This document shows, one piece after another, positions 4,410 through 39,308 of a stretch of DNA of 47,821 nucleotides. The first letter of the stretch is position 1, and each line of letters opens with the position of its first letter. The notes under the pieces were generated by a model. The model had not been told where the DNA came from. It ran no database searches and worked only from the letters and a program-made list of their open reading frames with translations. Position numbers and translations under genes: made by a program. The stretch is taken from the sequence record DRR723986_6985, one strand, 5' to 3'.

Positions 4410-5375
4410 TTAGGCAGCCTGCAACGTATAAACCGAGAACCAGTTGTTCTCGTCGCTGTCGACGTCCGTGATCTGCCATCCACCCTCGCGGGCGATGCCT
4501 TCGAACGCTTCCTCGCGGTATTTGTGCGAGTTTTCCGTGTGGATTGTCTCGCCCTTTGCGAATGCGACGGTTTCCCCGGCGATGGAGACCTGCTGCCGAA
4601 CCAGGCTTTCCAGATGCATCTCGATACGGCTTTCGCCGTCGTTCCAGATGGCTTTGTGTGCGAAGGCGGCGAGGTCGAAATCGCCATCCAGTTCCCTGTT
4701 GATCCGCTGCAAAAGGTTCTGGTTGAAGGCTGCTGTAATCCCGGCTGGATCGTCATAGGCTTCCTGCAGGACTTTTGCATCCTTTGGCCGGTCCACACCG
4801 ATAACTAGGCTGGCCTCCGGCATGGCTGAGCGAATGTTCGACAGGAGTGCCGCTGCCTCGGTTTTCTCGAAGTTGCCGATCGTGGAACCGGGAAAGAAGA
4901 TCAGCACTGGCAACTCGGGCAGCAACGGCAGTTGTCCGAAGGGCTGTGTGAAATCGGCAGCAACCGGGATTACCGCCAATGACGGGTATGCGCGGCGCAC
5001 CCGTTCGGCAGCAGCTTTCAGATGATTGGCTGAAATGTCGATCGGCATGTAGACGGACAGGTCTGGAAAGGCATTCAGCAACAGGTCTGTCTTGCGGCTG
5101 GACCCGCTGCCCAGTTCGACCATCGCTCCGCGTGCGCCCGGTAGACGGCGATATTTCCTGGCATTCTGGGCGAGGATCGAGATCTCCGTTCTGGTGGGGT
5201 AATAGGCATCCAGTTCGGTGATCGCTTCGAACAGATGTGACCCGACATCGTCGTAGAGCCATTTGCTGCTGATCGCCTTCTGGTCCTTGAGGAGACCGGA
5301 GAGAATGTCGTCGCGAAACATATCCGACTGGTTCTCGTCCGTTTGGTTCTCGGGAGAAACATGCTTGGTCATCAT
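4410..5375 (-). CDS. egtD: L-histidine N(alpha)-methyltransferase
   Basis: KWLYDDVGSHLFEAIT, YYPTRTE, ELGSG, FPGSTIGN, IHTENSHKY; ATG 5375 overlaps the egtB stop (ATGA). Confidence 0.93.
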   Translation of the reverse strand: MMTKHVSPENQTDENQSDMFRDDILSGLLKDQKAISSKWLYDDVGSHLFEAITELDAYYPTRTEISILAQNARKYRRLPGARGAMVELGSGSSRKTDLLLNAFPDLSVYMPIDISANHLKAAAERVRRAYPSLAVIPVAADFTQPFGQLPLLPELPVLIFFPGSTIGNFEKTEAAALLSNIRSAMPEASLVIGVDRPKDAKVLQEAYDDPAGITAAFNQNLLQRINRELDGDFDLAAFAHKAIWNDGESRIEMHLESLVRQQVSIAGETVAFAKGETIHTENSHKYREEAFEGIAREGGWQITDVDSDENNWFSVYTLQAA

Positions 5376-6637
5376 TGATCTCCCGCCAGCCTCAGGCCGA
5401 GCATCTGCCAGCGTTGGTGTGGATAGAAGAAGGTGCGGTACGACGACCGCAACTGTTCCTTCGGGGTCGCGCAGGACCCGCCGCGCAGCACCATCTGGTT
5501 GACCATGAACTTGCCATTGTATTCGCCAATGGCCCCCTCGGGTGGTCTGAAGCCCGGATAGGGGCTGAAAGCGCTGCTGGTCCATTGCCAGACATCGCCC
5601 CAAAGACCGGGCCTGCGGCCAACAGGCTGAAAGGCTCCGCTTTCCAGGAAATTGCCTTCGATCGGGGTCGGCTCTGCAGCGGCTTCCCACTCTGCTTCCG
5701 TCGGCAACCGGCGACCTGCCCAGCGGGCAAAGGCTTCCGCTTCGTAGTAACTGACGTGGACAACCGGTGCCGCAAGATCAACCGGTCTTGGACCCTGCAA
5801 GGTATAGGTCCACCATTGACCGTCCTGCTGCCACCAGTAGAGGGGGCTGTCCCAACCGTTCTTCTCTCGCACGGCCCAGCCTTCCATCAGCCAGAGCGTT
5901 TGGGCTGAGTAACCACCATCTTCCATGAAGGCGATCCACTCGCCGTTTGTTACGGGACGATCCGAAAGACGATAGGGCTCCAGCCAGACCTTGTGACGTG
6001 GCCCTTCGCAGTCATAAGCAAAGCCGGTCCCGTCGTGGCCGATTTCGAGAAGACCACCGTCGTAGGAAACCCATTCGGCGGTTTCAACCGCGCTGACCGG
6101 TGCCGGTTTTGGCTCGATATAGGCGGGCAGCAGCGGATTGAAGGAAAACGCATGGAGGAGATCGGTGACCAGCAGTTCCTGATGCTGCATCTCATGATGA
6201 CAGCCGAGGGTAATCAGCTCTTCAAGCTTGTCCTGTTCGAGCGAAAAGGCGTTTCGGGCAACTCCTTCACGCAGGGCGTCTTCGACGTGTGAGCGGTAGT
6301 CAAGCACGTCGGTGGCGCTGGGCCGCGAAAGCAGGCCCCGTCTCGACCGGGTATGCCTCGGGCCGGCTTGTACGTAGTACGAATTGAAGAGCACGGCGAA
6401 ACGATCATCGCGTGGCTGATAGCCAGGCAGCGAAGGCTTCAGGATGAATTCTTCGAAGAACCAAGTGGTGTGTGCCATGTGCCACTTGGGCGGGCTGGCA
6501 TCCTCCATGGATTGCAGCCCCATATCCTCCGGACTGAGGGGGGCGGCGAGAGCAAGTGTCTGTGCCCTGACCCGATCAAACAGGTCGGTAACGGCGGAAA
6601 GAGGCGCTTCATGCGTCCGCTCATCCAGCAATGTCAT
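5372..6637 (-). CDS. egtB: Ergothioneine sulfoxide synthase
   Basis: SPPKWHMAHTTWFFE and HEMQHQE iron-binding His motifs; FGE-like C-terminal domain (RLPTEAEWE, EYNGKFM); coupled to egtD. Confidence 0.93.
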   Translation of the reverse strand: MTLLDERTHEAPLSAVTDLFDRVRAQTLALAAPLSPEDMGLQSMEDASPPKWHMAHTTWFFEEFILKPSLPGYQPRDDRFAVLFNSYYVQAGPRHTRSRRGLLSRPSATDVLDYRSHVEDALREGVARNAFSLEQDKLEELITLGCHHEMQHQELLVTDLLHAFSFNPLLPAYIEPKPAPVSAVETAEWVSYDGGLLEIGHDGTGFAYDCEGPRHKVWLEPYRLSDRPVTNGEWIAFMEDGGYSAQTLWLMEGWAVREKNGWDSPLYWWQQDGQWWTYTLQGPRPVDLAAPVVHVSYYEAEAFARWAGRRLPTEAEWEAAAEPTPIEGNFLESGAFQPVGRRPGLWGDVWQWTSSAFSPYPGFRPPEGAIGEYNGKFMVNQMVLRGGSCATPKEQLRSSYRTFFYPHQRWQMLGLRLAGDQ

Positions 6638-9233: not shown

Positions 9234-10754
9234 TTACTGAACCCGCGGATAAAGCGTCTCGATTTCGCCGAGATCGCTATTGCCTTCCAGCCGGTCAAGT
9301 TCCGGCTTCCACGGGCAGGCGACAGCCGGTGCGTTCAGCATGGCAAGAGCCTTGCCGGCAGACGCAGGGATGACCTGTGTCAGCGCTTCCATGACGACGC
9401 GCAGGCAGTCCAGCGTCACGTAGATCACCGTCTGGCAACGCTCGCGGGTCTCCTCGTTCTTGATGAGATCCCAGGGAGCCTGCTCGGCGAAGTAGTTGTT
9501 CATCTCGTCGGCGACGGTGATGATCGACTGCATGCGAGCCGGGATTTCAGCAAGGTTGACCCATTCGCCCATGCCCTTGGTGGCTTCAAGCACGGACTTG
9601 CGGATCGCTTCGTCCTCGGCTGACAGCGGACCCGGTGCCGGCAGTTTGCCGTCAAAACGGGCCTTGGAGAACTTGGCCGCCCGCGACAGCAGGTTGCCGA
9701 TCTTGTTGCCCAGTTCCGTGTTGTAGGACTGGGTGATGAAGTCGACCGAAATCTGGCTGTCGCTGTCCGCACGCATGTGCCGGGCGAGGTACCAGCGCAA
9801 GGCGTCGACGCCCAGCTTCTCGATGACCTCGATCGGATCAACAACGTTGCCGATGGACTTCGACATCTTGACGCCGCCCGCACCAACCCAGTGGCTGTGA
9901 ACGGACAGTTTCTTCGGCAACGGCAGTCCGGCGGCCATCAGCATGATCGGCCAGTAGACGCCATGCGGCTTGAGGATATCCTTGCCGATCAGGTGCTCGC
10001 ATTCCGCCCACCAGCTCTCGTAGCCTGCTTCCGGCCAGTTGATGTTGGTGAGGTAGTTCGCCAGCGCATCGAACCAGACATAGGTGACGAAGTCGGTGTC
10101 GAAAGGCAGTTCGATACCCAGGGTTACACGGGCCTTCGGCCGGGAGATGCAGAGATCTTCCAGCGGTTCGGACAGCATCTGCTTCAGTTCGTTCTTGAAC
10201 GCTTCGGGCTGGACGAAGTCCGGATTTTCGGCGATGTGCTGCAGAAGGCGCTCGCGGAACGGTTCCATCTTCAGGAAGTAGTTGGTTTCCTCCGTCTGCT
10301 CCACCTTCATTGTCGGGTGCAGCGGGCACTGGCCCTCTTCGGTCAGATCGGATTCCTTCTTGAACTCCTCGCAGCCCTTGCAGTAGGTGCCGGTGTAGTT
10401 CTTCTTGACGATCAGATCCTTGTCGAAGATCGACTGCTCCATTCCAGCGACGGCCGTCTTGTGGCCCTCGCGGCTGGTGCGCACGAAATAGTCGTAAGCC
10501 ACGTCCAGACGGTCGAAGACATCGCGGAATTCTGCACAGCGCATGTTGAGGTAGTCTTCAACCGACATTCCCTCTTTTTCCGCTGCTTCCTGGTTCTTCT
10601 GTCCGTGCTCGTCCACGCCGGTGGACAGCATCATGTCATACCCCAGCGCCTGTCGGTTGCGTTTCAGGATATCGGCCATCACGGACGTGAAGGCGTGACC
10701 GATATGCGGAGAACCGTTGACGTAGTAGATCGGGGTGGTGATGTAGCTTTTCAT
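9234..10754 (-). CDS. metG: Methionine--tRNA ligase (short, single zinc-knuckle type)
   Basis: YITTPIYYVNGSPHIGH (HIGH), DEHGQK, YVWFDAL, KMSKS; knuckle CKGC...CPLH; 506 aa with no C-terminal dimerisation domain. Confidence 0.93.
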   Translation of the reverse strand: MKSYITTPIYYVNGSPHIGHAFTSVMADILKRNRQALGYDMMLSTGVDEHGQKNQEAAEKEGMSVEDYLNMRCAEFRDVFDRLDVAYDYFVRTSREGHKTAVAGMEQSIFDKDLIVKKNYTGTYCKGCEEFKKESDLTEEGQCPLHPTMKVEQTEETNYFLKMEPFRERLLQHIAENPDFVQPEAFKNELKQMLSEPLEDLCISRPKARVTLGIELPFDTDFVTYVWFDALANYLTNINWPEAGYESWWAECEHLIGKDILKPHGVYWPIMLMAAGLPLPKKLSVHSHWVGAGGVKMSKSIGNVVDPIEVIEKLGVDALRWYLARHMRADSDSQISVDFITQSYNTELGNKIGNLLSRAAKFSKARFDGKLPAPGPLSAEDEAIRKSVLEATKGMGEWVNLAEIPARMQSIITVADEMNNYFAEQAPWDLIKNEETRERCQTVIYVTLDCLRVVMEALTQVIPASAGKALAMLNAPAVACPWKPELDRLEGNSDLGEIETLYPRVQ

Positions 10755-10863
10755 CCAAACGCTTTCGAAATGTCTGGGCGGAAACAAGTCCGGTCCGGCC
10801 TGTTGCGGCGCATCTGCCGTTCCGCCTAAAGAGGTGCGAGCTATATTCCATACTCGCCCGCAC

Positions 10864-10897
10864 AAGAAAAGCCCCGGCCTTTGAAAAGACCGGGGTT
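10864..10897 (-). terminator. Intrinsic terminator after the YeiH-family gene
   Basis: Minus strand CCCCGGTC-ttttcaaa-GGCCGGGG followed by CTTTTCTT. Confidence 0.7.
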
Positions 10898-10937
10898 CTG
10901 CTTCGTTATATGGGGTGCGGCAAGGCCGATTGAAAGG

Positions 10938-11933
10938 TCAGCCGATCAGCCAGATGCCGCCCAGAACGAAGAGCGCCAGAAATGCTGTCTGCGTGACCAG
11001 CATCCAGATGGCCGGGCCGCCGACTTCCAGCAGTTTCGGGATCGAGGTTTTCATGCCCACTGCCGCAATTGCGGCCAGCAACGCCCAGCGGGAAACGTGT
11101 CCGGCCGCCTCCTTGGCAACGTCCGGAATAAGGCCGAAGGAATTGAGTGCGGCAAGCACCAGGAAGGCGACAACAAACGCCGGCATGATTGGAGGACGGG
11201 CGCTGCCCGGCACCGAACTCTTGCGCAGGATGAGCGCCGCGACCAGCACGATGGGCGCCAGCATTGTGACGCGGATCAGTTTCACCAGCGTCGAAAGGTC
11301 TCCGGTTTCCTCGGAGATCGAGAAACCGGCGCCGACAACCTGGGCAACATCGTGGATCGTGCCGCCAAGGAAGACACCGGTCGCGTCCATGGAAAGGCCG
11401 AGGGAGGAGGTCAGGATCGGGTAGAAGATCATCGCCAGTGTGGACAGGACGGTCACGGTAATCACCGTGAAGGCGAGATCGCGTTCGGCATGTTCGCGTT
11501 TCGGCAGGATGGAGCCGATGGCCATGGCCGCGGAGGCTCCGCAAATGGCGACCGCGCCGCCGGTCAGAAACGAAAACAACCTGTCTCGTCCGAACAGCCC
11601 GCCGATCAAGAGGGAAAAGCCGATGGTAACCAGGACGCCGAGGATCACCAGAAGCAGAAACGGCAGACCCAGCTGCTGCACCATTTCAACACTGATGCGG
11701 ACACCGAGCAGGGCAACGCCGACACGAAGCAGCGTGCGGGCGGCAAAGGCGATGCCTTCGCCCGTGCGCTGTTCCTCCGACAGGAAGTTCAGCGGCATGC
11801 CAAGCAGGATGGCCATCAACATGGCCGGTGCCCCGTAGTGCTCGTTGAGGAATTGCGCAGCAATGGCGACAAGCCCGGCAATCGCAATACCCGGGAACAG
11901 CCGGTTAGCCCGGTCTTTCAATGGAGCAACCAT
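10938..11933 (-). CDS. YeiH / putative sulfate (sulfite) exporter family membrane protein (UPF0324)
   Basis: LLRVGVALLG, AICGASAAMA, GGTIHDVAQVVGAG, KLIRV motifs; many hydrophobic segments. Confidence 0.88.
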   Translation of the reverse strand: MVAPLKDRANRLFPGIAIAGLVAIAAQFLNEHYGAPAMLMAILLGMPLNFLSEEQRTGEGIAFAARTLLRVGVALLGVRISVEMVQQLGLPFLLLVILGVLVTIGFSLLIGGLFGRDRLFSFLTGGAVAICGASAAMAIGSILPKREHAERDLAFTVITVTVLSTLAMIFYPILTSSLGLSMDATGVFLGGTIHDVAQVVGAGFSISEETGDLSTLVKLIRVTMLAPIVLVAALILRKSSVPGSARPPIMPAFVVAFLVLAALNSFGLIPDVAKEAAGHVSRWALLAAIAAVGMKTSIPKLLEVGGPAIWMLVTQTAFLALFVLGGIWLIG

Positions 11934-11959
11934 GAAACGTTCTTAGTCCTTGTTGATGT

Positions 11960-13279
11960 TTACCGATCGACGGGAAGGCCGCTCGGGACAGTGGCAGGGA
12001 TGCCGAAGGGCGGGGCCGTGACGGACTGCGTGCCGGTCAGGCTTTTCAGAAAAGCCTCCAGATCGGCAATCTCCGCATCCGAAAGAGGGAGAGGCTCAAT
12101 ATCCCTGAATCGGGCCTGACGCGCCATCTCACGAGCGTCATTCCAGACCACAAAATCGATCGCCTGCAGCCATGGCGCTTGTGGAAGGGCTGCGGTTTCC
12201 GGTGTCCAGGCTTTCAGCATTCCATCGGGGGCGAGATGATGCCGGATGATCCCCTCCAGCGTAGGGTAGGCGCCATTGTGCCCGTAAGGGGCGGTCAGCT
12301 CGACATTGCGCAGCATCGGGGTCCGGAACCGGTAGGCGTCTTCCAGGCGGTCGGTTTCTCCCATCACGCCGACATCGCGCACCATCGGATCGAAGCTGCG
12401 GGTGCGGCCCGGACCAAAGGGGGGCAGGCCCAGGGCGTGGAACTTCTGATCGCTGAGCAGTTTGCCCGAATGACACGAGGAGCACCCGGCCTTGCCGTAG
12501 AAGAGATCGAGACCCCGCTTCTGGGCCGGATCCAGAGCGCTTTCGTCGCCGGTGAGATACGCGTCGAACGGGCTGTCGAAGCTCTGCCATTCAATTGCCT
12601 GGAAAGCTGCCAGCGCATTTGCGATTTCAACGATCGTGACCTCTTCAGGGGCGTCGATATGATCGAACGCCTCGACAAACAGGCGGCCATATTCCGGAAT
12701 GATGCGGACGCGTTTGGCAAGGATCGGCCAGGCGTTGTCGATGCGGTCGTAAATGGCCCCGGCGATCTCGTTTTCCTTCGGATTGCCCGCCATCTCGAAC
12801 TGGGCCGTCACCGGAAAGACAGCCTGGGCGGCGAGCAGAGAATTGAAGCCCGTGGGCAGCCATTCTTCCGCAGGCGAATTGAAGCCGTTTTCGAAGGTAT
12901 CGGCAATCGACAGGCGGCCGTCATGAAACAGGACGTGGAGCTCGTTTGCTCCCAAGTTCCAAAGACCTGGAGCGTTTCGCGGAATCCGTTTCTTAATGCG
13001 GCTGTCACCGGTTCCGGCAACCCGCTTGAGGCCCAACCCTTCGCCGCCTTCGCCGATGCCGAGCGACAACCGGTCTCCGGTGCCGAGGTTCGGGTGATGG
13101 CATGTGGCGCAAGCAATATTCCTGTTGCCGGAGAGGATCTTGTCGTAAAAAAGCAACTGGCCGAGGGCTGCCTGCTTTCTGTCGAAGGCGATGAAATCGT
13201 CTTCCTTCAAGGGCGGTGGCAATTCGGAAGCAATCGCCGGTGCCGACAAGCAGAAGACCAGAGGGAGCAACCGCAACAC
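11960..13279 (-). CDS. Periplasmic di-heme cytochrome c peroxidase / MauG superfamily protein
   Basis: Signal peptide (M)LRLLPLVFCLSAPAIA from GTG 13279 (or TTG 13276); LGQLLFYDKILSG, CATCH, RNAP, CSSCH, FRTPMLRNVELTAPYGHNG. Confidence 0.85.
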   Translation of the reverse strand: MLRLLPLVFCLSAPAIASELPPPLKEDDFIAFDRKQAALGQLLFYDKILSGNRNIACATCHHPNLGTGDRLSLGIGEGGEGLGLKRVAGTGDSRIKKRIPRNAPGLWNLGANELHVLFHDGRLSIADTFENGFNSPAEEWLPTGFNSLLAAQAVFPVTAQFEMAGNPKENEIAGAIYDRIDNAWPILAKRVRIIPEYGRLFVEAFDHIDAPEEVTIVEIANALAAFQAIEWQSFDSPFDAYLTGDESALDPAQKRGLDLFYGKAGCSSCHSGKLLSDQKFHALGLPPFGPGRTRSFDPMVRDVGVMGETDRLEDAYRFRTPMLRNVELTAPYGHNGAYPTLEGIIRHHLAPDGMLKAWTPETAALPQAPWLQAIDFVVWNDAREMARQARFRDIEPLPLSDAEIADLEAFLKSLTGTQSVTAPPFGIPATVPSGLPVDR

Positions 13280-13762
13280 ATGAAAACCACGCTGACCGCC
13301 GCTCTTTTTGCTCTTGTGTTGTGCACGAGTTCTGCCCAGGCCGAAATCGAAGCCGCGCGCGACCTGATGGAGGCCAATCGCTACGAAGAGGCGATGAAGG
13401 AACTTTGGCCGGCGGCACGTTCCGGCAACGCGGATGCGGAAGAACTGATCGGTGTGATGTACGCCATGGGGCTGGGTGTCGAGCGCGACGACCAGCGGGC
13501 GTTCGAGTGGTATCTCAGAAGTGCGATGAAGGGGCATCCGGGTGCCCAGTCCGGTGTCGGCTGGTACTATGAGGTGGGACGGGGCATGCCGGCTCCGGAT
13601 CTCGTGCGGGCTTACATGTGGTACACGCTCTCCGCCATCGGGGGGGACCCCGACGCCGCGATCTCTCTGGAAGAGGTGGTCAAGAAGATGACCAAAGACG
13701 AGATTGAGAAGGCGCATATCCTGGTCGGTGATTACAAGGTCTGGATGTATCCGTTCAATTGA
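13280..13762 (+). CDS. Exported Sel1-like repeat protein
   Basis: Signal peptide MKTTLTAALFALVLCTSSAQA; Sel1 repeats (AEELIGVMYAMGLGVERDDQRAFEWY; AQSGVGWYYEVGRG); GAGGGAG upstream. Confidence 0.85.
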   Translation: MKTTLTAALFALVLCTSSAQAEIEAARDLMEANRYEEAMKELWPAARSGNADAEELIGVMYAMGLGVERDDQRAFEWYLRSAMKGHPGAQSGVGWYYEVGRGMPAPDLVRAYMWYTLSAIGGDPDAAISLEEVVKKMTKDEIEKAHILVGDYKVWMYPFN

Positions 13763-13934
13763 AAGCCGGCGGTTCGTTCCTGATCGGCGCAGAACTCGCG
13801 TGATCGAGTGCTGGGCGGACCGGGCCATTGAGCTCTGGCTCTCCCGGGTCTCCCACGGCTTCACCATGGGACGTGTGCCGATCCCTGTCCAGTTTACGGC
13901 AGGCACGATTCCGGACCGGTGCATGTGCTGGGAT

Positions 13935-13966
13935 GTGTCACGCCCTGCAGTGGCAAGGCGTGACAC
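13935..13966 (-). other. Strong hairpin just downstream of dctP (stabiliser-like, no U-tract)
   Basis: Minus strand GTGTCACGCCTTGC-cact-GCAGGGCGTGACAC. Confidence 0.6.
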
Positions 13967-13975
13967 GGTGTTTCG

Positions 13976-15034
13976 TCAGTTCAGATCGGCAGAGCGATTG
14001 GCGTTGATGTCGGCTTCGGCCGCAGCCACGGCTTCTTCCAGAGCGCCGAAGATCTCGCCGCCGCGTCCGACATTGCCCTTGAACCAGTCATAGACCGGAG
14101 CGGCTGCTTCCTTGAAGGCTGCCTTTTCTTCCGGGGTCGGGACGTAGAGATCGCCGCCACCGGCCACGAAGTCTTCATACGCCTTGATCGACTTGCGCTT
14201 CGGTGAGGCGAAGGTTGCCTGCTGCAGGGCGTAGAAACCATCCACCACGACACGGCGAAGGTCTTCCGGCATCGACAGGAACTTCTCGTTGTTCATCCAC
14301 CACAAGGCGCCCATGTAAGCATGCCCGTCGAGGGTGACATACTGAAGACCGGCATCGGGGAACTTCATGCCCATGATGTCGGTGATGCCGTTCTTGGAAC
14401 CTTCGACAACGCCGGTCTGCAGCGAGGTGAACAGTTCCGGCCACGGGATCGGCGTCGGAGCAGCACCAAGTGCCTTGACCAGTTCCTGCGGCAGGTCGGC
14501 CACCACGGTGCGGATCTTCAGGCCCTTGAGGTCTTCCGGCTTGGCGACGCGATGCTTGGTGTTGGCGAAGTTGCGCCAGCCGCCGGTGTTGCCGATGGTC
14601 ATCAGGCGGATTGTGTCACCGGAATCTTCCAGTGCCATCGTGCGCATGGTGCGGGTGAATTCACCCGACAGGACATGCTCCGCAATCCGGTCGTCGCTCA
14701 TCATGTAGGGCAGGTCGAGAACCTGGACATACGGGAAAATGCCCGCCGCGCCGCCGGAAGTGGAGATGTAGATGTCGATCGCACCGTCGGAAATCCCCTG
14801 AAGGCATTCAGCGCCGTTGGAGCAAAGCTGCGTACCGATGAACAGTTCGACCTCGATGGCACCGTTGGAAGCGGCCTCAACGAAGTTCTTGAATACGACA
14901 AGACCGTCGTAGTCTTCGTCGTTTTCGTTGGAATTGGCGGTTGCGCGCAGCGTGTAGTCCGCGGCAAGCGCGCTCAGCGACGATCCGGCAAGCATCGCCG
15001 CGACGGTGAGCGTTTTCAGTGCAGTTTTGAGCAT
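13976..15034 (-). CDS. dctP: TRAP substrate-binding protein DctP (probable sulfoquinovose or SQ-glycoside)
   Basis: Signal peptide; DLKGLKIRT and PIPWPELFTSLQTGVVEG; substrate inferred from context only. Confidence 0.9.
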   Translation of the reverse strand: MLKTALKTLTVAAMLAGSSLSALAADYTLRATANSNENDEDYDGLVVFKNFVEAASNGAIEVELFIGTQLCSNGAECLQGISDGAIDIYISTSGGAAGIFPYVQVLDLPYMMSDDRIAEHVLSGEFTRTMRTMALEDSGDTIRLMTIGNTGGWRNFANTKHRVAKPEDLKGLKIRTVVADLPQELVKALGAAPTPIPWPELFTSLQTGVVEGSKNGITDIMGMKFPDAGLQYVTLDGHAYMGALWWMNNEKFLSMPEDLRRVVVDGFYALQQATFASPKRKSIKAYEDFVAGGGDLYVPTPEEKAAFKEAAAPVYDWFKGNVGRGGEIFGALEEAVAAAEADINANRSADLN

Positions 15035-15061
15035 TAGGTTCCTCCCTTAGAAAGCTCAGGA

Positions 15062-16555
15062 TCAGTTGGCAAATCCGGTCAGACGCGGGATCGTCATCGA
15101 AAGTGCCGGAATATAGGTGATCAGGAAGATCACCGCGATTTCCACCGCCAGAAACGGCAGGATGGCTTTGGCAATGGTTTCAACCCGTTCTCTTGAAACC
15201 GAAGCCGCAACGAAGAGCACCAGTCCCATGGGCGGCGTTGCCAGGCCGATGGTCAGGTTGACGCTCATGATGATGGCGAAATGGATCGGATCGACGCCAA
15301 GGTTGACGAAGATCGGTCCAAGAATGGGGCCGAGAATGATGATCGCGGGGCCTGCATCCAGGAACATGCCGACAACGAAGAGCAGCAGGTTGATCAGGAA
15401 CAGCAGGATCAGCGGGTTCTCCGACAGGGTGAGAACGAACTCCGCCATGATTTCGGGAGCGTGGCTGAGGCTGACGACAGTCTTGAAGGCCATCGCCGCA
15501 CCGACCAGGAGAAGCACCACTGCAGAGGTTATACCAGCCCTGTTCAGGACACCCGGGATCTCGGAGACCTTGATGGAGTGCAGAACGAAGAAGCCGATAA
15601 CCAGCGCGTAGGCAACTGCGACCGCGGCCGCTTCCGTTGGCGTGAAGACCCCCAGCAGAATGCCGCCGAGAATGATGATCGGCGTCTGAAGCGGAGCAAC
15701 TGCTTTCTTGCACACGACCCGAAAATCTTCCGAGACAGCACTTCTGAGCTTCCACAAGAGCACATGGGAAACCGCCAGGAAGACTGCGAACAGGATGAAG
15801 GAAGTCGTCGTTGAAAGGGACGCGAACCCGGTCACGGTGATCACAAGGTCCGCGATCACCGTGAACAGGGCAGCCAGGTTTGCCCTCAGCACAATGAAGG
15901 AGAACCAGTATTCCACCGGTGCCATGGTTTGGCCGGGGTTGACGATCCTCTGTGCTTTGGGAAGGTCGTACTTGTTGGCCATGACCTTGACCATCAGCAT
16001 CAGGCCGATGCCGACCATGATGCCGGGTACGATACCGGCCAGGAACAGCGCGGCAACGCTCTCGCCCATCACATAGGCATAGATGATCATGATGCCCGAC
16101 GGCGGAATGATCGGGCCGATGACGGAACTCGCCGCGGTGATTGCCGCAGCAAAACGCCTTGTGTAACCCTGCTTCTCCATTGCCGGGATCAGCATTGATC
16201 CAAGAGCGGAGGTATCGGCAACAGCGGAACCGGATAGGCCTGCAAACAGCATCGACGACAGGATGTTCACATGAGCAAGGCCGCCGCGCAGATGTCCCAT
16301 CAGGGCCTGGCTGAACTCGACCAGCCGCATGGTGATGCCGCCCTTGTTCATCAGCTCGCCTGCGAGCATGAAAAACGGAATCGCCATCAGAGGAAAACTG
16401 TCCATGCCGTTGTAGACGTTGCGGTAAAGCAGCGTAATGTCTTTTTCCTGGCCGTTCAGCCAGAGCAACAGGCCAGGGGCCGCCAGAAGGCCGAAGAAGA
16501 CAGGCAGTCCGATCAGCAGGAAGACGAGGAAGACGGGAAGGAACCAGATCAGCAT
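15062..16555 (-). CDS. dctM: TRAP large permease DctM
   Basis: FPLMAIPFFMLAG, SGSAVAD, GPIIPPS, GVFTPTEA, GLATPPMG. Confidence 0.92.
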   Translation of the reverse strand: MLIWFLPVFLVFLLIGLPVFFGLLAAPGLLLWLNGQEKDITLLYRNVYNGMDSFPLMAIPFFMLAGELMNKGGITMRLVEFSQALMGHLRGGLAHVNILSSMLFAGLSGSAVADTSALGSMLIPAMEKQGYTRRFAAAITAASSVIGPIIPPSGIMIIYAYVMGESVAALFLAGIVPGIMVGIGLMLMVKVMANKYDLPKAQRIVNPGQTMAPVEYWFSFIVLRANLAALFTVIADLVITVTGFASLSTTTSFILFAVFLAVSHVLLWKLRSAVSEDFRVVCKKAVAPLQTPIIILGGILLGVFTPTEAAAVAVAYALVIGFFVLHSIKVSEIPGVLNRAGITSAVVLLLVGAAMAFKTVVSLSHAPEIMAEFVLTLSENPLILLFLINLLLFVVGMFLDAGPAIIILGPILGPIFVNLGVDPIHFAIIMSVNLTIGLATPPMGLVLFVAASVSRERVETIAKAILPFLAVEIAVIFLITYIPALSMTIPRLTGFAN

Positions 16556-17145
16556 CAGTCAGCTCCTGCCATGTCGGGATCGGGAATGACCGGCATGCGG
16601 TCGGCGCCACCGAAGCTGGCGATGATGTTGCGCAGGATCAGCTCGATGTTGACGAGCGTCAGCAGGAATACGCCGACGAGGATGGAAGCCATCATCCAGC
16701 TGCGCGGCACGCGGATCCATTCGCTGAAGGAAAGGTTGCCCGGAACATAAAGCGAGGCGGTTGCGAAACGGCCTCCGAAACCGGTGACTTCCGAAAAGCC
16801 GATCTTCAGGGCAACGACGAGCACCACAAGTGAAATAAGCAGAAGGAGCAGGGATATGGCGCTCCCCAGCAGGCGAGGCAGGGAATGGGTGAACATGTCG
16901 ATGGCAACGAAACCGCCTCTGCGGAACGCTGTTGGTGCCATAAGACCTGTCATCCAGAGCATGTAGAAACGGGCTGCTTCGTCCGGCCAGGGCAGGGCAT
17001 TGTTGAAGACATAGCGGAACACGACCTGCACCAGGATCGCGATCACCATCAGGGCGACGGCAACGATGCCGATGCCCCGGCCAATTCGCAACAGCAGCGA
17101 ATTGACGAAGTCGAGCGGTGCGAGAACCGCCAGCAAAATGCCCAT
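16555..17145 (-). CDS. dctQ: TRAP small permease DctQ
   Basis: QVVFRYVFNNALPWPDEAAR; 4 hydrophobic segments; SD GGAGGAG before ATG 17145. Confidence 0.9.
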   Translation of the reverse strand: MGILLAVLAPLDFVNSLLLRIGRGIGIVAVALMVIAILVQVVFRYVFNNALPWPDEAARFYMLWMTGLMAPTAFRRGGFVAIDMFTHSLPRLLGSAISLLLLLISLVVLVVALKIGFSEVTGFGGRFATASLYVPGNLSFSEWIRVPRSWMMASILVGVFLLTLVNIELILRNIIASFGGADRMPVIPDPDMAGAD

Positions 17146-17162
17146 TCGGGCTCCTCCCTGGA

Positions 17163-17264
17163 TCAACCGGCCTTCATGTGCGCGAACATGAAAACCGCGA
17201 AGCTGATCATGTTAAAAGTGGCGAAGCGGTCTTCTGCGTTCTCCTGAGACAGAAGGCTTCTCAC
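17163..17264 (-). CDS. Candidate small protein, 33 aa (MRSLLSQENAEDRFATFNMISFAVFMFAHMKAG)
   Basis: GGAGG-aaa-GTG start and TGA at 17163; fills the smoA-dctQ gap; SD spacing is short. Confidence 0.3.
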   Translation of the reverse strand: MRSLLSQENAEDRFATFNMISFAVFMFAHMKAG

Positions 17265-17305: not shown

Positions 17306-17821
17306 TTATTTTGGAGCGATTTGTCCGAGTTTGCCTGCATAAAACGTCAGGGCCTCGCCTGAACGCATCTCGGCCTGCAACACCTGCCCAAGAACGATCA
17401 GGTGATCGCCGCCCTCATAGGCGGTGAAGCGCTTGCACTCGAAGCGGGCGAGACAGTTTTCGATCAGGGGCACGCCGTTGTCGTCGATCGTATAGGTGAG
17501 CTGATCGAAAGCATGGGCATTGCGCACGAAACCGTTGCAGACTTCAGCCTGTTCGTTGCTGAGCACATGAATCGCGTAATGTTCGGCCGTTTCGAAATAC
17601 CTGAACCTGCGCGATCCCTTGTCCGGCATCCACAGGACAAGTGCCGGTTCCAGGGAGACGGATGAGAAGCTGTTGGCTGTAATGCCGACGGGGCCGTCGG
17701 CCGAGCCGGTGGTCACCACCGTAACACCGGTGGCAAATCGACCGAACGCATCCCGCAAGAGGCGGGTGTTGTCGGCGTCCGGTTCGAAGGTCACGGTATG
17801 ATTGGCATTCTGCATGGTCAT
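17306..17821 (-). CDS. smoA: Flavin reductase (SmoA-like)
   Basis: LRDAFGRFATGVTVVT, TANSFSSVSLEP, GGDHLIVLG; TGATG-coupled to the upstream reductase; symbol from synteny. Confidence 0.82.
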   Translation of the reverse strand: MTMQNANHTVTFEPDADNTRLLRDAFGRFATGVTVVTTGSADGPVGITANSFSSVSLEPALVLWMPDKGSRRFRYFETAEHYAIHVLSNEQAEVCNGFVRNAHAFDQLTYTIDDNGVPLIENCLARFECKRFTAYEGGDHLIVLGQVLQAEMRSGEALTFYAGKLGQIAPK

Positions 17822-18711
17822 CAGGGCACCTCTGTTCCAAGCGCCGCTTCGTAAAGACGGTACCAGGTTTCGCGATCCAGGCTGACTTTCAGCGCGTCGG
17901 AGATCTGGGCAATGCGCTCCAGATTGTTCGTGCCCATGACCGGCAAAAGTTGCGCCGGATGAGCCAGAAGGAAGGCGACCGCGACAGCGGACCGGTCTAC
18001 ACCGGCCTCTGCAGCAATTTCGTCCATTACGGTGCCAAGCTTGCCACGTTCGGAAATCAGCGAGCCACCACCGAGGGGGGACCATGCCATCAACCGGGTG
18101 CCGAGGCGCTGGTGGAACGCGAGGTCGCCATTGGTGAACGGCGCGATTTCCTTCAGTGAGATCTCGATCTGGTTGGTCACAAGCCGGTTCGACATCGCCG
18201 ACTGCAGCAGCTCCCAGTCCCAGGGGCGGAAGTTGGAGACACCGACATTCCGCACCTTGCCGCTCTTGACCAGGTCATCGAGCGCGGCGCCGGTCTCGTG
18301 ATGGTCCATCAGCGGGTCCGGGCGATGGATCAGCAGCAGGTCGATGGTCTCGATGCCCATCTCCGTGAGGGAGAACTCGACCGACTTCTCGATGTGAGAT
18401 CGGGACGTGTCGTAGTATTTCACCCTGGCATCCGAGTACCGTCCCATCGGTGCGACGATGTCGCATTTGGTGACGATTTCCATCTGACTACGCAGGGCCG
18501 GATTGGCCTTCAGCGCCCCGCCAAGCACGGCTTCCGCGGCATAACCGCCGTAAATGTCAGCCTGATCGAAGGTCGTGATGCCCTGGTCGAGACAGGTCTG
18601 GATCTTGCGTTCCACGTAAGCGGGGGACGTGTCGCTGTCGTCGCCGATGCGCCACATGCCATAGATCAGCCGGGAGAATTCCAGGGTTTCAGAAAGTTTC
18701 ACGCGGTCCAT
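17821..18711 (-). CDS. smoB: Aldo/keto reductase (SmoB-like 6-oxo-glucose reductase)
   Basis: FSRLIYGMWR, FDQADIYG, IVTKC, LLIHRPD, GVSNF; TAATG-coupled to the monooxygenase; symbol from synteny. Confidence 0.82.
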   Translation of the reverse strand: MDRVKLSETLEFSRLIYGMWRIGDDSDTSPAYVERKIQTCLDQGITTFDQADIYGGYAAEAVLGGALKANPALRSQMEIVTKCDIVAPMGRYSDARVKYYDTSRSHIEKSVEFSLTEMGIETIDLLLIHRPDPLMDHHETGAALDDLVKSGKVRNVGVSNFRPWDWELLQSAMSNRLVTNQIEISLKEIAPFTNGDLAFHQRLGTRLMAWSPLGGGSLISERGKLGTVMDEIAAEAGVDRSAVAVAFLLAHPAQLLPVMGTNNLERIAQISDALKVSLDRETWYRLYEAALGTEVP

Positions 18712-19865
18712 TAGCGGCGCACTCCTTGGCCAAGCGGGGTTGCCGGCGTTTGAGCCGGTACACGACCATAGGCGTGCGGAAGGGAACATGTCTTCAGATT
18801 CGGCAGGACCCTGGACCCGAAATGCCTGGCTTCTTCCAGGTGCGGATAGCCTGAGAAGATGAAGGCACGAATGCCCATCTTCTGATAGGCCTCGATCTTG
18901 GACATCACCTGATCGGTTGACCCGACCAGCGCTGCCCCGCAACCGGACCGCGCCCGGCCGACCCCTGTCCACAGGTTCGGTTCGATGTAACCGAATTCAT
19001 CGGCGATCTCGCGGTTCTTTGCCTGGTGGCTCACCCCCAGCGACTTGGCATCCAGTGCCCGTTCGCGAATGGCGGTTCCCTGGGTCTCGTCAAGTTTGGA
19101 GACGATATAGTCCGCGTATTCCTGCGCTTCCTTTTCCGTGTCGCGCACGATCATGTGCACGCGCAGGCCATAGTCTAGTGTGCGGTCGTATTTCTCGGCG
19201 ACCGCGTTGACCGCCTTCATGCGGCCTTCCAGTTCCTCGATCTTTTCCGGCCACATCAGGTAGACGTCGCAATGCTGACCGCAAAGGTCCAGCGCATCCG
19301 GAGAATAACCCCCGAAATAGAGCAGGGGGCCACCGGTCTGGTAAGGCCGGGCGGGGTCCGTGGTCAGGCCCTTGAAGTTATAGACCTTGCCTTCGTAATT
19401 TATTTCGTCCTGCGTCCAGGCCTGCTTCAGGATCTCCACCACTTCCCGCGAACGCTGGTAGCGATAGCTGCTGTCGGCCTGCTCGCCCGGAAAGTCGGAC
19501 GAGATGATGTTGACCGTCAACCGGCCCTCGAGCATGTGGTCCAGCGTGGCAATGGTCCGCGCCAGCATAATCGGCTGCATCTCGCCGCAGCGAACCGCTG
19601 CCAGCAGGTTGATCTTGTCGGTGATCGGCGCGCAGCCGGCGACGAAGGACAGGGTATCCTGGCCTACCTGGTAGGACGACGGGCACAGGATGTTGCGGAA
19701 GCCCTGCTGCTCGGCTGTTTTCACGATCGAGGAGCAATGCTCCCAGGAGGAACGCAGATGGCCTTCGGGTACGCCCAGAAACTGATAGTCGTCGGAACAC
19801 AATGCGGCGAACCAGGATACCTCCGCTGCATCAAGATCCGGTGACGTGACTGGGACTACGGTCAT
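18711..19865 (-). CDS. smoC: LLM-class flavin-dependent monooxygenase, probable sulfoquinovose monooxygenase
   Basis: MTVVPVTSPDLDAAEVSWFAALCSDDYQFLG, LCPSSYQVGQD, PLLYFGGYS, LWTGVGRARSGCGAALVG; SsuD-like fold; first gene of a monooxygenase-AKR-flavin reductase run. Confidence 0.82.
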   Translation of the reverse strand: MTVVPVTSPDLDAAEVSWFAALCSDDYQFLGVPEGHLRSSWEHCSSIVKTAEQQGFRNILCPSSYQVGQDTLSFVAGCAPITDKINLLAAVRCGEMQPIMLARTIATLDHMLEGRLTVNIISSDFPGEQADSSYRYQRSREVVEILKQAWTQDEINYEGKVYNFKGLTTDPARPYQTGGPLLYFGGYSPDALDLCGQHCDVYLMWPEKIEELEGRMKAVNAVAEKYDRTLDYGLRVHMIVRDTEKEAQEYADYIVSKLDETQGTAIRERALDAKSLGVSHQAKNREIADEFGYIEPNLWTGVGRARSGCGAALVGSTDQVMSKIEAYQKMGIRAFIFSGYPHLEEARHFGSRVLPNLKTCSLPHAYGRVPAQTPATPLGQGVRR

Positions 19866-20003
19866 GAAGTGCCTCCCTTGGACCATCTTGTCGAATACCG
19901 AAACCCGCATGCGCCGACATGGGTGCGATTGAGGTTTCGCTATTTTCGTTTGTTTTCGAATGGCTTCATTCTGCCTTCGATTTCTTCTTGCATATCACCC
20001 GTT

Positions 20004-20055: not shown

Positions 20056-20766
20056 ATGCCAACCGCCTCGCAAACCTCTACCGCGCTGCCGTTATACGTG
20101 CAGATAAGCGAGCTTTTGATCAGGGATATCGCGGCCGGGCGGCTGATCGACGGGGAGCGGCTGCCGCCTGAAAGGGACATGGCAGAGGAGCTTGGCATCT
20201 CCATCGGAACCCTTCGCAAGGCACTCGCCGACCTTACGCAAAAAGGCTTACTCGAGCGGATCCAGGGGTCGGGAAACTACATACGGCAAGGCGGCACGCA
20301 TGAGAGCGTCTACGCCATGTTCCGTCTGGAACTCCTGACCGGAGGTGGTCTGCCTCGCGCGGATATTCTGGACGTAAAGCGCCTGGACAAGCCGGACGAT
20401 CTGCCGCTTTTCGGTACCAGCGCCGAAGGCACCCGTATCCGCCGGCTGAGGTTTCTCAACGATGTGATGATTGCGGTGGAGGAAATCTGGCTCGACGGCG
20501 ACGCGGGATTCGTGCGGCGCGAGCTTCTGTCGGACTCGCTTTACCGCTTTTACCAGAAACACCTCGGGTTCTGGATCGTGCGTGCAGAAGACCGGGTGAC
20601 CATCCGTGCGCTGCCGGATTGGACACCGGAACTCTTTCAGAAGACGCCGGGCACTCTCACAGGCTTTGTCGAACGGTTCAGCTGGGCGGATCGCCCCAAG
20701 CCGGTCGAATATTCGCGAACCTGGTTCGACACGGACCGGGCGCATTACGTGCAGCGCTTGAAATAG
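20056..20766 (+). CDS. GntR (HutC/UTRA) regulator, SmoD-like
   Basis: LPLYVQI...RLPPERDMAEELGISIGTLRKAL...GSGNYI followed by a UTRA-like domain; divergent from smoC. Confidence 0.88.
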   Translation: MPTASQTSTALPLYVQISELLIRDIAAGRLIDGERLPPERDMAEELGISIGTLRKALADLTQKGLLERIQGSGNYIRQGGTHESVYAMFRLELLTGGGLPRADILDVKRLDKPDDLPLFGTSAEGTRIRRLRFLNDVMIAVEEIWLDGDAGFVRRELLSDSLYRFYQKHLGFWIVRAEDRVTIRALPDWTPELFQKTPGTLTGFVERFSWADRPKPVEYSRTWFDTDRAHYVQRLK

Positions 20767-20801: not shown

Positions 20802-21926
20802 ATGCCTGCAAAGGTAAGATATGGTGTCATTGGCTGCGGGATGATGGGGCAGGAGCACCTGCGCAACATCGCACTCCTGCCGGACACCGAAGTAACGGTG
20901 ATCTTCGAGCCTGACGCCGGAATGGCGGAAGCGGCACCAAGATTTGCGCCTCTTGCGCGATTTGCCAATTCCGTTTCGGAACTGCTGGAAGTGGACGAAC
21001 TGGACTGCATCCTGATTGCCAGTCCGAACCACTGCCATGTGCCGCAGATGGAAGAAATTCGCCGCAAGCGCCCGTTGCCGCTTCTCGTCGAAAAACCTCT
21101 CTTCACCGATCCCAAGGATGTTGCTGAGCTGGAGGCTTTCAAGGCGTCCTATCCGGCGCCGGTGTGGGTGGCGATGGAGTACCGCTACATGCCGCCGATC
21201 GCGGCGTTGATCGAGCAGGCGGAAGCAGCCACTGGCGGCATCAAGATGCTGACCATCCGCGAACACCGTTTTCCCTTCCTCGACAAGGTCGGCGCATGGA
21301 ACCGGTTCAACCGCTACTCCGGTGGTACATTTGTTGAAAAGTGTTGCCATTTCTTCGATCTCATGCGGCTGATCATGCAATGCGAACCAGTCCGCGTGAT
21401 GGCGTCGGCCGGCCAGGATGCCAACCACAAGGACGAGGTCTACAATGGCGAGCAGCCGGACATTCTCGACAATGGCTATGTGATCGTCGACTTCGAAAAC
21501 GGTGCTCGGGCCATGCTGGAACTTTGCATGTTTGCCGAAGGCTCGCGCTACCAGGAAGAAGTGTCGGCCGTTGGCCCGGACGGCAAGATCGAAGCCTTCG
21601 TGCCGGGTCCCGGACGCTTCTGGCCAGAACACCTCGGCGAGCCGCCGGTGCCCCAGCTAGTCGTGTCACCCAGGTACCCGAAGGGACCGCGTCAGATCGA
21701 TATTCCGGTTGACCCGATGATCCTCGATGCAGGCGATCACAACGGCTCGACATTCTATCAGCACGAAGGTTTCGTGGCTGTCGTACGCGGTGAAAAGCCG
21801 GCACCTGAAGTGACGCTTGAAGACGGATGGCGGGCCGTGGAAATGGGGCTGGCGGCACAGCAGTCTGCCCGTACGGGTCAGGCCGTGACGCTACGATCTC
21901 AGGCGCTTTCCTCCGTCGCCTGCTGA
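20802..21926 (+). CDS. Gfo/Idh/MocA-fold protein, probable NAD+-dependent sulfoquinovosidase (GH188)
   Basis: GVIGCGMMG Rossmann motif, VEKP, and EHRFPFLDKVGAWNRF...GGTFVEKCCHFFDL, which I recall as typical of GH188-like proteins; context fits. Confidence 0.75.
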   Translation: MPAKVRYGVIGCGMMGQEHLRNIALLPDTEVTVIFEPDAGMAEAAPRFAPLARFANSVSELLEVDELDCILIASPNHCHVPQMEEIRRKRPLPLLVEKPLFTDPKDVAELEAFKASYPAPVWVAMEYRYMPPIAALIEQAEAATGGIKMLTIREHRFPFLDKVGAWNRFNRYSGGTFVEKCCHFFDLMRLIMQCEPVRVMASAGQDANHKDEVYNGEQPDILDNGYVIVDFENGARAMLELCMFAEGSRYQEEVSAVGPDGKIEAFVPGPGRFWPEHLGEPPVPQLVVSPRYPKGPRQIDIPVDPMILDAGDHNGSTFYQHEGFVAVVRGEKPAPEVTLEDGWRAVEMGLAAQQSARTGQAVTLRSQALSSVAC

Positions 21927-39171: not shown

Positions 39172-39308
39172 GCTCTCAGACCATCTCGTCTGCAATTGCG
39201 AGACTACGCCCTTGTGTCAGGAGAGTTCACTCTAAAAACTATTTTGCCTTGTCCTTGTCACGATCCAGTGACTTGATAGCGGAAATTATAGGCCCCGGAG
39301 GATTGGCC

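Follow-up and report, generated by a model that had tools for sequence, protein, structure and literature searches.

A di-haem CCP/MauG-superfamily variant in a proposed, so far undescribed accessory module for sulfoquinovose uptake

Why should a gene cluster for the uptake and breakdown of sulfoquinovose (SQ) carry a gene for a secreted di-haem protein? The question is raised by a stretch of 47,821 nucleotides from sequence record DRR723986_6985 (hereafter the window), in which such a gene lies on the minus strand next to the genes of an SQ importer. We find that its product is a variant of the CCP/MauG superfamily, to which the bacterial cytochrome c peroxidases (bCCPs) and MauG belong, and propose that together with a divergently encoded Sel1-repeat protein it forms an undescribed accessory module of SQ uptake. 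Bacteria of the Roseobacter group are major marine consumers of SQ, and the enzymes of their SQ clusters have been worked out one by one. A conserved secreted redox enzyme next to the importer suggests an undescribed component, be it of the pathway itself, of its protection or of its regulation. The scale of the process is large, with SQ production put at about 10 billion tonnes a year in the available text of PMC10755693.

Fold, haem sites and two replaced residues

The di-haem protein matches the Pfam family CCP_MauG (PF03150) with 120.3 bits against a cut-off of 25.6 (E=1.5e-34), and its AlphaFold2 model, computed from an alignment of 103 sequences, has a mean predicted local distance difference test score (pLDDT) of 95.9. 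The top Foldseek ranks for this model are MbnH (6e1c), MacA, several bCCPs, YhjA and MauG, all with a probability of 1.00, the entries 6e1c, 4aam, 1iqc and 3l4m among them. A real protein with two haem motifs and the CCP/MauG fold is confirmed, far beyond chance; it is about 100 residues longer than canonical bCCPs, with insertions between the haem motifs. A sequence-only reading of the gene had pointed to two CxxCH motifs, a signal peptide, the segment LFHDGR (residues 117-122) and a second segment at residues 331-348 (PYGHNGAYPTLEGIIRHH, that is, P331-YGHNGAYPTLEGIIR-H347-H348), and all of these are borne out by the translation. The hydrophobic leader at the N-terminus is genuine and its start codon is uncertain.

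The same reading had proposed that histidine occupies both of the positions that define the family, replacing the tryptophan that relays between the haems and the tyrosine or methionine that ligates haem 2. According to the available text of PMC6405878, the six-coordinate haem is Tyr-His ligated in MauG and Met-His ligated in bCCP, and Trp93 of MauG sits midway between the haems. Both equivalences hold up. We used a family profile built from the 103 sequences and a MAFFT alignment of the query with its 150 nearest 50%-identity representatives (151 rows). The profile segment 'ripRnapalfnlgakefttlfwDgR' matches 'GPRNSPTVFNAVFNA--AQFWDGR' of 1eb7, and likewise 1nml, 2c1u and 3hq8, while the His119 column of the MAFFT alignment holds W in 74 rows and H in 52; because profile and column align there, we place His119 at the position of the relay tryptophan. 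Profile and multiple alignments were relied on because pairwise phmmer comparison is unreliable in the N-terminal half, where it wrongly pairs query residues 142-168 with the FWDGR of 1eb7 and 9qdt, and a comparison of the 36-residue segment around FHDGR with the PDB gave chance matches only. At the second position, His348 pairs with residue 294 of 3orv, an entry titled Y294H-MauG, and the 'rhh' of the family profile ends at M275 of 1eb7 and at M289 of 2c1u, where MbnH reads 'DIY'. His294 presumably binds the haem iron in 3orv. Haem 2 is predicted from these alignments to be bis-His ligated, by His270 and His348.

The distal side of haem 1 is conserved. E162 is invariant in the 103-sequence alignment and Q152, P156 and M163 are each conserved to at least 90%, and the spacing of these residues (four, then six, then an adjacent Met) equals that of Q-A-K-G-P-I-Q-N-S-V-E-M in the sequence of 1eb7 and that of Q103, P107 and E113 in MauG, as numbered in PDB titles. 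By these signs the peroxide-activating side seems intact. At the position of the bCCP 'GHGW' loop, which we take to give those enzymes their closed bis-His resting form, the consensus of the di-haem family reads 'geggeglg', with no His there.

The pair of histidines is shared well beyond the gene in the SQ cluster. The commonest combinations at positions 119, 347 and 348 in the 151 aligned rows are WHH (40), HHH (34) and WHY (23), others being fewer. In a midpoint-rooted FastTree tree of 123 sequences, displayed without support values, H119 falls in one large clade, inside which S, V, A, G, T, F or W occur sporadically and the SQ-linked orthologues are nested; the sister clades retain W119, with H, Y, K, M or E at position 348. 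Paralogues with 41-47% identity also have FHDGR and RHH, and none of the window's SQ-cluster genes lies within about 10 kb of them. The His/His signature is thus a trait of one large clade, of which the SQ-linked gene is only one member. Among the positions that switch along with W119H are R164A (just after the Glu-Met pair), M333G (in P-Y-x-H) and R109L, and at R164A and M333G bulky neighbours of the Trp site give way to small residues in the same clade; this co-switching suggests a remodelled space between the haems. As a natural version of the engineered Tyr-to-His variants of MauG and BthA that has also lost the relay tryptophan, the clade offers a ready test of both residues.

One clade of His/His paralogues in Rhodobacterales (46-50% identity) adjoins genes for an FG-GAP/ASPIC-UnbV protein and a ROK regulator in seven of nine loci (L119, L129-L131 and L133-L135), with a xylose-isomerase-like TIM-barrel gene in four of the seven and an FGGY kinase gene in three. 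Given the Sel1-repeat protein beside the gene studied here, a dedicated repeat-protein partner in a sugar locus looks like a habit of the family. In one genome (G555) a His/His paralogue lies about 14 kb from the SQ-linked orthologue.

Conserved neighbours of the di-haem gene

We compared 80 orthologous loci (68-94% identity) from Roseibium/Stappiaceae, many Rhodobacterales and some metagenome-assembled genomes of Rhizobiaceae, each with up to 10 kb of flank on either side; 68 of them have at least 9 kb upstream and form a full-flank subset. The most constant neighbour, overlooked when partner genes were named from the sequence, is the Sel1-repeat open reading frame (ORF), which is present in 77 of the 80 loci and 67 of the 68 with full flanks (two of the three misses begin at a contig end) and was found again in 11 of 11 further orthologue loci. 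DctP follows with 68 of 80 (63 of 68), and the five full-flank loci that lack it have a DctP orthologue (79-89% identity) elsewhere in the same genome, some of these 10-20 kb upstream and apparently on the same contig. The SmoC-type luciferase-like monooxygenase is encoded in 61 of 80 loci (61 of 68), in keeping with the expected enrichment of homologues near smo clusters, and the SqgA-like Gfo/Idh/MocA protein in 56 of 80 (56 of 68). The YeiH-family gene, to which the di-haem gene had been linked across a gap correctly given as 26 nt, is bound to one lineage: it occurs in 29 of the 80 loci, those of Roseibium plus one other (L079). It was rejected as a conserved partner, the genes downstream of the di-haem gene varying by lineage.

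SmoC, which releases sulfite, is a frequent neighbour, yet the pair itself tracks the importer and not SmoC. Three loci (L113-L115) have the pair inside clusters that resemble the second sulfoglycolytic Embden-Meyerhof-Parnas pathway (sulfo-EMP2), with no monooxygenase within the 20-kb locus and the order DeoR, DctQMP, Sel1, di-haem protein, PfkB kinase, DeoC/LacD aldolase, isomerase, SqgA-like protein, epimerase and aldehyde dehydrogenase; the di-haem stop and the start of the sulfo-EMP2-type kinase gene overlap in L113. A minimal locus, L116, has only the genes of the tripartite ATP-independent periplasmic (TRAP) importer, the Sel1 and di-haem genes and an SqgA-like gene. Because these EMP2-like and minimal loci keep the pair without a monooxygenase, the constant association is that of importer, Sel1 protein and di-haem protein and not that of monooxygenase and di-haem protein, with the pair itself being optional. 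An even sample of 401 genomes from the class, the source of loci L113-L116, contains six genomes with the orthologue (at least 60% identity), all six with the arrangement DctP, opposite-strand Sel1, di-haem gene, and eight with the DctP orthologue (at least 73% identity), two of which (G294 and G418) lack the pair. A draw at the level of the phylum added six orthologues, all six in clusters with the monooxygenase pathway, the TRAP importer and Sel1.

The corresponding loci of G294 and G418 (L125 and L126, in genomes of about 1.9-2.7 Mb) carry genes for an SQ-type TRAP importer, kinase, aldolase, isomerase and SqgA-like protein with no Sel1 or di-haem gene, and provide natural 'minus-pair' controls. 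In public runs labelled as RNA, the stretch appears only in long contigs of 8-16 kb, with flat depth and about 98% identity, which are possibly DNA.

Table 1. Features of the window around the di-haem gene
Feature	Position	Strand	Remarks
di-haem CCP/MauG-fold gene	11960..13279	-	439 aa counted from GTG 13279; start uncertain, possibly upstream, antisense to the Sel1 gene
haem 1 motif CATCH (C57, C60, H61), peroxide-side haem	13097..13111	-	invariant in 103-sequence alignment
F118-H119-D120-G121-R122	12914..12928	-	His119 at inter-haem Trp position of bCCP/MauG, by profile and multiple sequence alignment
Q152...P156...E162-M163, haem 1 distal pocket	12791..12826	-	correspondence deduced from spacing and near-invariance
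haem 2 motif CSSCH (C266, C269, H270)	12470..12484	-	translation, motif scan
R346-H347-H348	12236..12244	-	His348 at MauG Tyr294/bCCP Met275, predicted sixth ligand of haem 2, by alignment
Sel1-repeat protein, secreted, divergent	13280..13762	+	160 aa; signal peptide; C-terminal DYKVWMYPF; fixed partner gene
YeiH-family membrane protein	10938..11933	-	26 nt downstream of di-haem gene
TRAP DctP	13976-15034	-	SQ/SQ-glycerol importer type
TRAP DctM	15062-16555	-	SQ/SQ-glycerol importer type
TRAP DctQ	16555-17166	-	SQ/SQ-glycerol importer type
flavin reductase, SmoA-type	~17306-17800	-	within sulfo-SMO block 17306..19910
aldo-keto reductase, SmoB-type	17821-~18720	-	within sulfo-SMO block 17306..19910
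SsuD-like monooxygenase, SmoC-type	18711-~19865	-	within sulfo-SMO block 17306..19910
GntR/UTRA regulator	20056-20766	+	domain annotation
Gfo/Idh/MocA protein, NAD-dependent sulfoquinovosidase type (SqgA, GH188)	20802-21926	+	structure-entry matches

The Sel1 repeats of the partner are recognised by Pfam (E=6e-16). Across 55 sequences the protein combines a variable signal peptide with a near-invariant mature part (73% mean column identity), which has no Cys and many invariant aromatic residues and ends in the motif D-Y-(K/R)-x-W-(M/L)-Y-P-F, with W155, Y157 and F159 included. A prediction of the complex between the two proteins in their mature forms, with two haems, scored 0.00 with no control runs and weighs neither for nor against an interaction.

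The two genes meet in an unusual way. The Sel1 ATG at 13280 directly abuts the assumed GTG of the di-haem gene at 13279 on the opposite strand, and the codon homologous to this GTG is CTG, GTA, GGT, GCC, AGG, ATC or others in other loci. The gap between the Sel1 ATG and the codon for residue 22 of the di-haem protein is 45-81 nt in 72 of 77 loci, and in 41 of the 77 none of ATG, GTG and TTG occurs 14-30 codons upstream of residue 22, so that in those 41 any canonical start giving a normal signal peptide would have to overlap the coding region of Sel1. Either the di-haem leader starts inside the Sel1 gene, in a 5'-5' antisense overlap, or initiation is unusual. Within the region 13225-13330, which has its homologous counterparts in L031-L116, a Shine-Dalgarno-like GAGGGAG of the Sel1 gene lies inside leader codons of the di-haem gene (CTC CCT CTG). 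The layout of this region points to divergent genes that overlap in antisense, or else to read-through that starts at dctP and crosses a gene on the opposite strand.

In public gene calls the di-haem leader is truncated or missing, or proteins of 570-670 aa are given. We rejected as a real protein the corresponding 668-aa ORF of the window (11960-13966), the extension of which is the codon-phase antisense of the Sel1 gene; the extension has stops in 10 of 80 orthologues and mostly ends within tens of codons of the Sel1 3' end. The frame stays open because TTA, CTA and TCA make up only 0.55% of the 3,844 codons counted in 11 genes, the chance of no stop in 160 codons being P ~0.42. Long plus-strand antisense ORFs also lie opposite MetG, YeiH, the di-haem gene and DctP (9777-10829, 10881-12119, 12179-13762 and 14321-15037); with a GC content at third codon positions of 0.69-0.79 and the same rarity of TTA, CTA and TCA, we read them as by-products of codon usage, which would explain the inflated public gene calls.

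That the surrounding genes form a sulfosugar cluster, as the sequence-only reading held, is confirmed by SmoC-, SmoB- and SqgA-type matches. The luciferase-like monooxygenase matches 7oh2/7olf over its full length with 686 bits and the aldo-keto reductase matches 7bby/7bbz with 420 bits, entries with generic PDB names that we take to be Agrobacterium SmoC and SmoB, respectively. The Gfo/Idh/MocA protein matches 8zn9 with 557 bits and 8qc2 with 375 bits. The latter entry is the NAD-dependent sulfoquinovosidase FlSqgA (data statement of PMC10755693), and the former is probably that of RdSqgA, whose crystal structure is reported in the available part of PMC12780224, where the code 8zn9 appears once. 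The TRAP importer corresponds to SqoKLM, with a proposed role in the uptake of SQ and SQ-glycerol in the available text of PMC10507154 and PMC12780224. Because of these matches, together with the flavin reductase, the GntR regulator and DctPQM, we assign these genes to the Roseobacter-type sulfoquinovose monooxygenase (sulfo-SMO) cluster with a TRAP importer, a type described in the accessible portions of PMC10755693, PMC12780224 and PMC10507154; its components (SmoC-type monooxygenase, SmoB-type reductase, flavin reductase, sulfoquinovosidase and importer) are all present. For the YeiH-family gene the best NCBIfam match is 'putative sulfate export transporter', under the cut-off of the model.

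Elsewhere in the window, overlapping minus-strand ORFs at 4410-6637 have a Methyltransf_33 domain (histidine-specific methyltransferase, E=1.6e-105) and DinB_2 plus FGE-sulfatase domains, and by this domain content are presumably an EgtD/EgtB pair of ergothioneine synthesis. On the plus strand lie two further ORFs, one of 899 aa (22655-25354), which has a bacterial SH3 domain at its N-terminus and shows weak extensin-like proline-rich similarity, and one of 1867 aa (39249-44852).

Possible roles of the Sel1/di-haem pair

The reading that we favour, and which we regard as evenly balanced between right and wrong, is that the di-haem protein is a Sel1-partnered, H2O2-activating periplasmic enzyme with a bis-His haem 2 that is accessory to SQ uptake. 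It builds on the observed anatomy, fold, residue equivalences and synteny, and would add to them the ligation, the chemistry and the joint working of the two proteins. According to this proposal, haem 1 would react with H2O2 (or O2) and form a compound-I-type oxidant, the target of which would be something able to come into direct contact with the enzyme, the bis-His haem 2 would serve as a low-potential electron path, and the Sel1 protein would confer specificity as an adaptor or as the substrate. The Sel1/di-haem module would then be an optional accessory of the SQ TRAP importer in marine Alphaproteobacteria, used with either cytoplasmic SQ pathway. In the available text of PMC6405878, the variants BthA Y463H and MauG Y294H lose the near-infrared signal of the bis-Fe(IV) state, and BthA Y463H retains peroxidase turnover; with the activity of BthA in spite of its missing tryptophan, this argues for peroxide (or O2) activation at haem 1. 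Long-range oxidation through a MauG-type bis-Fe(IV) state appears unlikely on these analogies, and a standard peroxidase fed by a high-potential cytochrome c is likewise unlikely.

Several points weigh against it. Ligation by His348 is a prediction from alignment, and the neighbouring His347 is conserved even more (121 of the 136 rows with a residue there), so it could be the haem ligand or serve another role. No obvious electron partner for a low-potential bis-His haem is encoded in the cluster, and we found no biochemical data for any member of the His/His clade. One locus, L107, carries the di-haem gene without room for Sel1. In the sulfo-EMP2-like clusters of G294 and G418 dctP is followed directly by the kinase gene with no pair between them, and the pair is therefore dispensable for the pathway. 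Finally, the loci come from relatives and the cluster may be passed on in one block, so that the counts overstate independence. The literature offers no direct help: our search found nothing linking the di-haem protein or the Sel1 pair to SQ, supplements, which may list the gene, being outside it, and the SQ-pathway papers searched do not mention a peroxidase or a cytochrome, nor Sel1 where it was looked up.

Among the alternatives, a periplasmic oxidation of sulfite after C-S cleavage, with electrons passed to the respiratory chain or oxygen transferred from H2O2, would fit the SmoC-type sulfite-releasing monooxygenase encoded in 61 of 68 full-flank loci. The YeiH-family protein, adjacent in 29 loci, would in Roseibium let the product out or the sulfite in; an Alteromonas SQ cluster, moreover, has an optional sulfite dehydrogenase and sulfate transporter, and sulfite is reducing enough to serve a low-potential haem. 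However, 51 of the 80 loci lack YeiH, the pair persists in the EMP2-like loci without a monooxygenase within 20 kb and beside only TRAP and SqgA-like genes in L116, a Mo-cofactor domain and a Cys-ligated haem motif are both missing, there is no Cys in mature Sel1, and the conserved pocket is of the peroxide-activating type. The EMP2-like and minimal loci and the lineage-bound YeiH lead us not to favour a role in sulfite handling, which we consider quite improbable. That intact pocket would equally serve ordinary peroxide defence, co-regulated with the uptake of algal compounds and involving no SQ-specific chemistry, either because SQ would signal nearby phototrophs that produce H2O2 or because flavin-dependent desulfonation would leak it. 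The optional nature of the pair fits such a role, as does the turnover of an artificial donor by BthA Y463H and by the wild type with Ser257, which lack the Tyr/Met ligand and the Trp, respectively (PMC6405878, available text). A near-invariant dedicated Sel1 partner is not, however, expected of a detoxifying peroxidase, nor is a fixed place between dctP and the catabolic genes across two pathways; a bis-His haem would be ill-suited to the usual high-potential donors, and standard-length CCP-like genes (open frames of 340-396 aa) exist elsewhere in genomes of the genus. We therefore regard plain defence as unlikely.

The near-invariance of the Sel1 protein, W155, Y157 and F159 included, would be explained if the di-haem protein were a maturase of the MauG/MbnH kind that oxidises aromatic residues of Sel1 or DctP for SQ capture. 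MbnH (6e1c) is its closest solved relative; MauG and MbnH, we assume, act on the product of a neighbouring gene, and MbnPH is presumably tied to an import system. But the di-haem protein has Ala264 two residues before the haem-2 Cys, where we take MauG to have W199 (numbered from a PDB title). The Tyr ligand and the relay Trp, on which long-range bis-Fe(IV) oxidation depends, are both replaced, moreover, and Tyr-to-His variants lose bis-Fe(IV) in the available text of PMC6405878. A maturase is on balance a distinctly doubtful proposition. The pair may instead carry out a new periplasmic step of SQ metabolism coupled to the TRAP importer, a change to an SQ glycoside or to sulfite that would depend on haem and on peroxide or O2; the remodelled cavity (W119H, R164A, M333G) would then be a new ligand site or electron-relay site, and the His/His clade as a whole would consist of partner-guided periplasmic oxidants in sugar-uptake loci, with Sel1 as partner here and FG-GAP/ASPIC proteins in the paralogues. 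We hold this to be unlikely too, and retain the Sel1-partnered, H2O2-activating enzyme as the working interpretation.

Comparison with known di-haem enzymes

With the canonical bCCPs (1eb7, 1iqc, 2c1u, 1nml and the MacA entry 4aal) the di-haem protein shares the fold, the two CxxCH motifs, the R-N-x-P...F-x-D-G-R segment and the Q...P...E-M pocket. It departs from them at both diagnostic residues, Met275 and the Trp of FWDGR, which are His348 and His119 here. The best NCBIfam match is TIGR03981, the model of MauG-like proteins associated with His-Xaa-Ser peptides, which reaches 245 bits over residues 18-356 against a cut-off of 340; no radical-SAM or His-Xaa-Ser peptide genes are found among the annotated neighbours. 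A weak local match to the RoxA model PF21419 (residues 321-346, 20.6 against a cut-off of 26.7 bits) recalls a rubber oxygenase that we take to be a much larger, extracellular member of the CCP_MauG superfamily with a bis-His second haem.

BthA of Burkholderia (6nx0) is a distant match (profile E=6.8e-34) that also lacks the inter-haem Trp, having Ser257 in its place, and still turns over H2O2 (available text of PMC6405878). Unlike the bis-His haem predicted here, it keeps Tyr-His ligation and a stable bis-Fe(IV) state. MbnH is the best match in both sequence and structure (family-profile E=8.8e-58, Foldseek rank 1) and has the same fold with two c-haems, whereas it reads 'DIY', with Tyr at the ligand position, where the di-haem protein has 'RHH', and the latter scores 138.6 bits with the MbnH model TIGR04039 against a cut-off of 362.85. 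MbnH presumably stands beside its periplasmic partner in a methanobactin/copper import locus; that partner is MbnP, in contrast to the Sel1-repeat protein and the sulfosugar-uptake context here.

MauG (3l4m) likewise shares the fold, with the equivalents of its Tyr ligand and of Trp93 both replaced in the di-haem protein, and the MauG model TIGR03791 gives 126.3 bits against a cut-off of 443.85, in agreement with the earlier conclusion that the protein is not MauG. No methylamine dehydrogenase genes occur among the genes annotated at 3432-28198, the rest of the genome not having been searched for mau genes. Since His348 aligns with His294 of 3orv, the di-haem protein is a natural counterpart of the engineered Y294H MauG.

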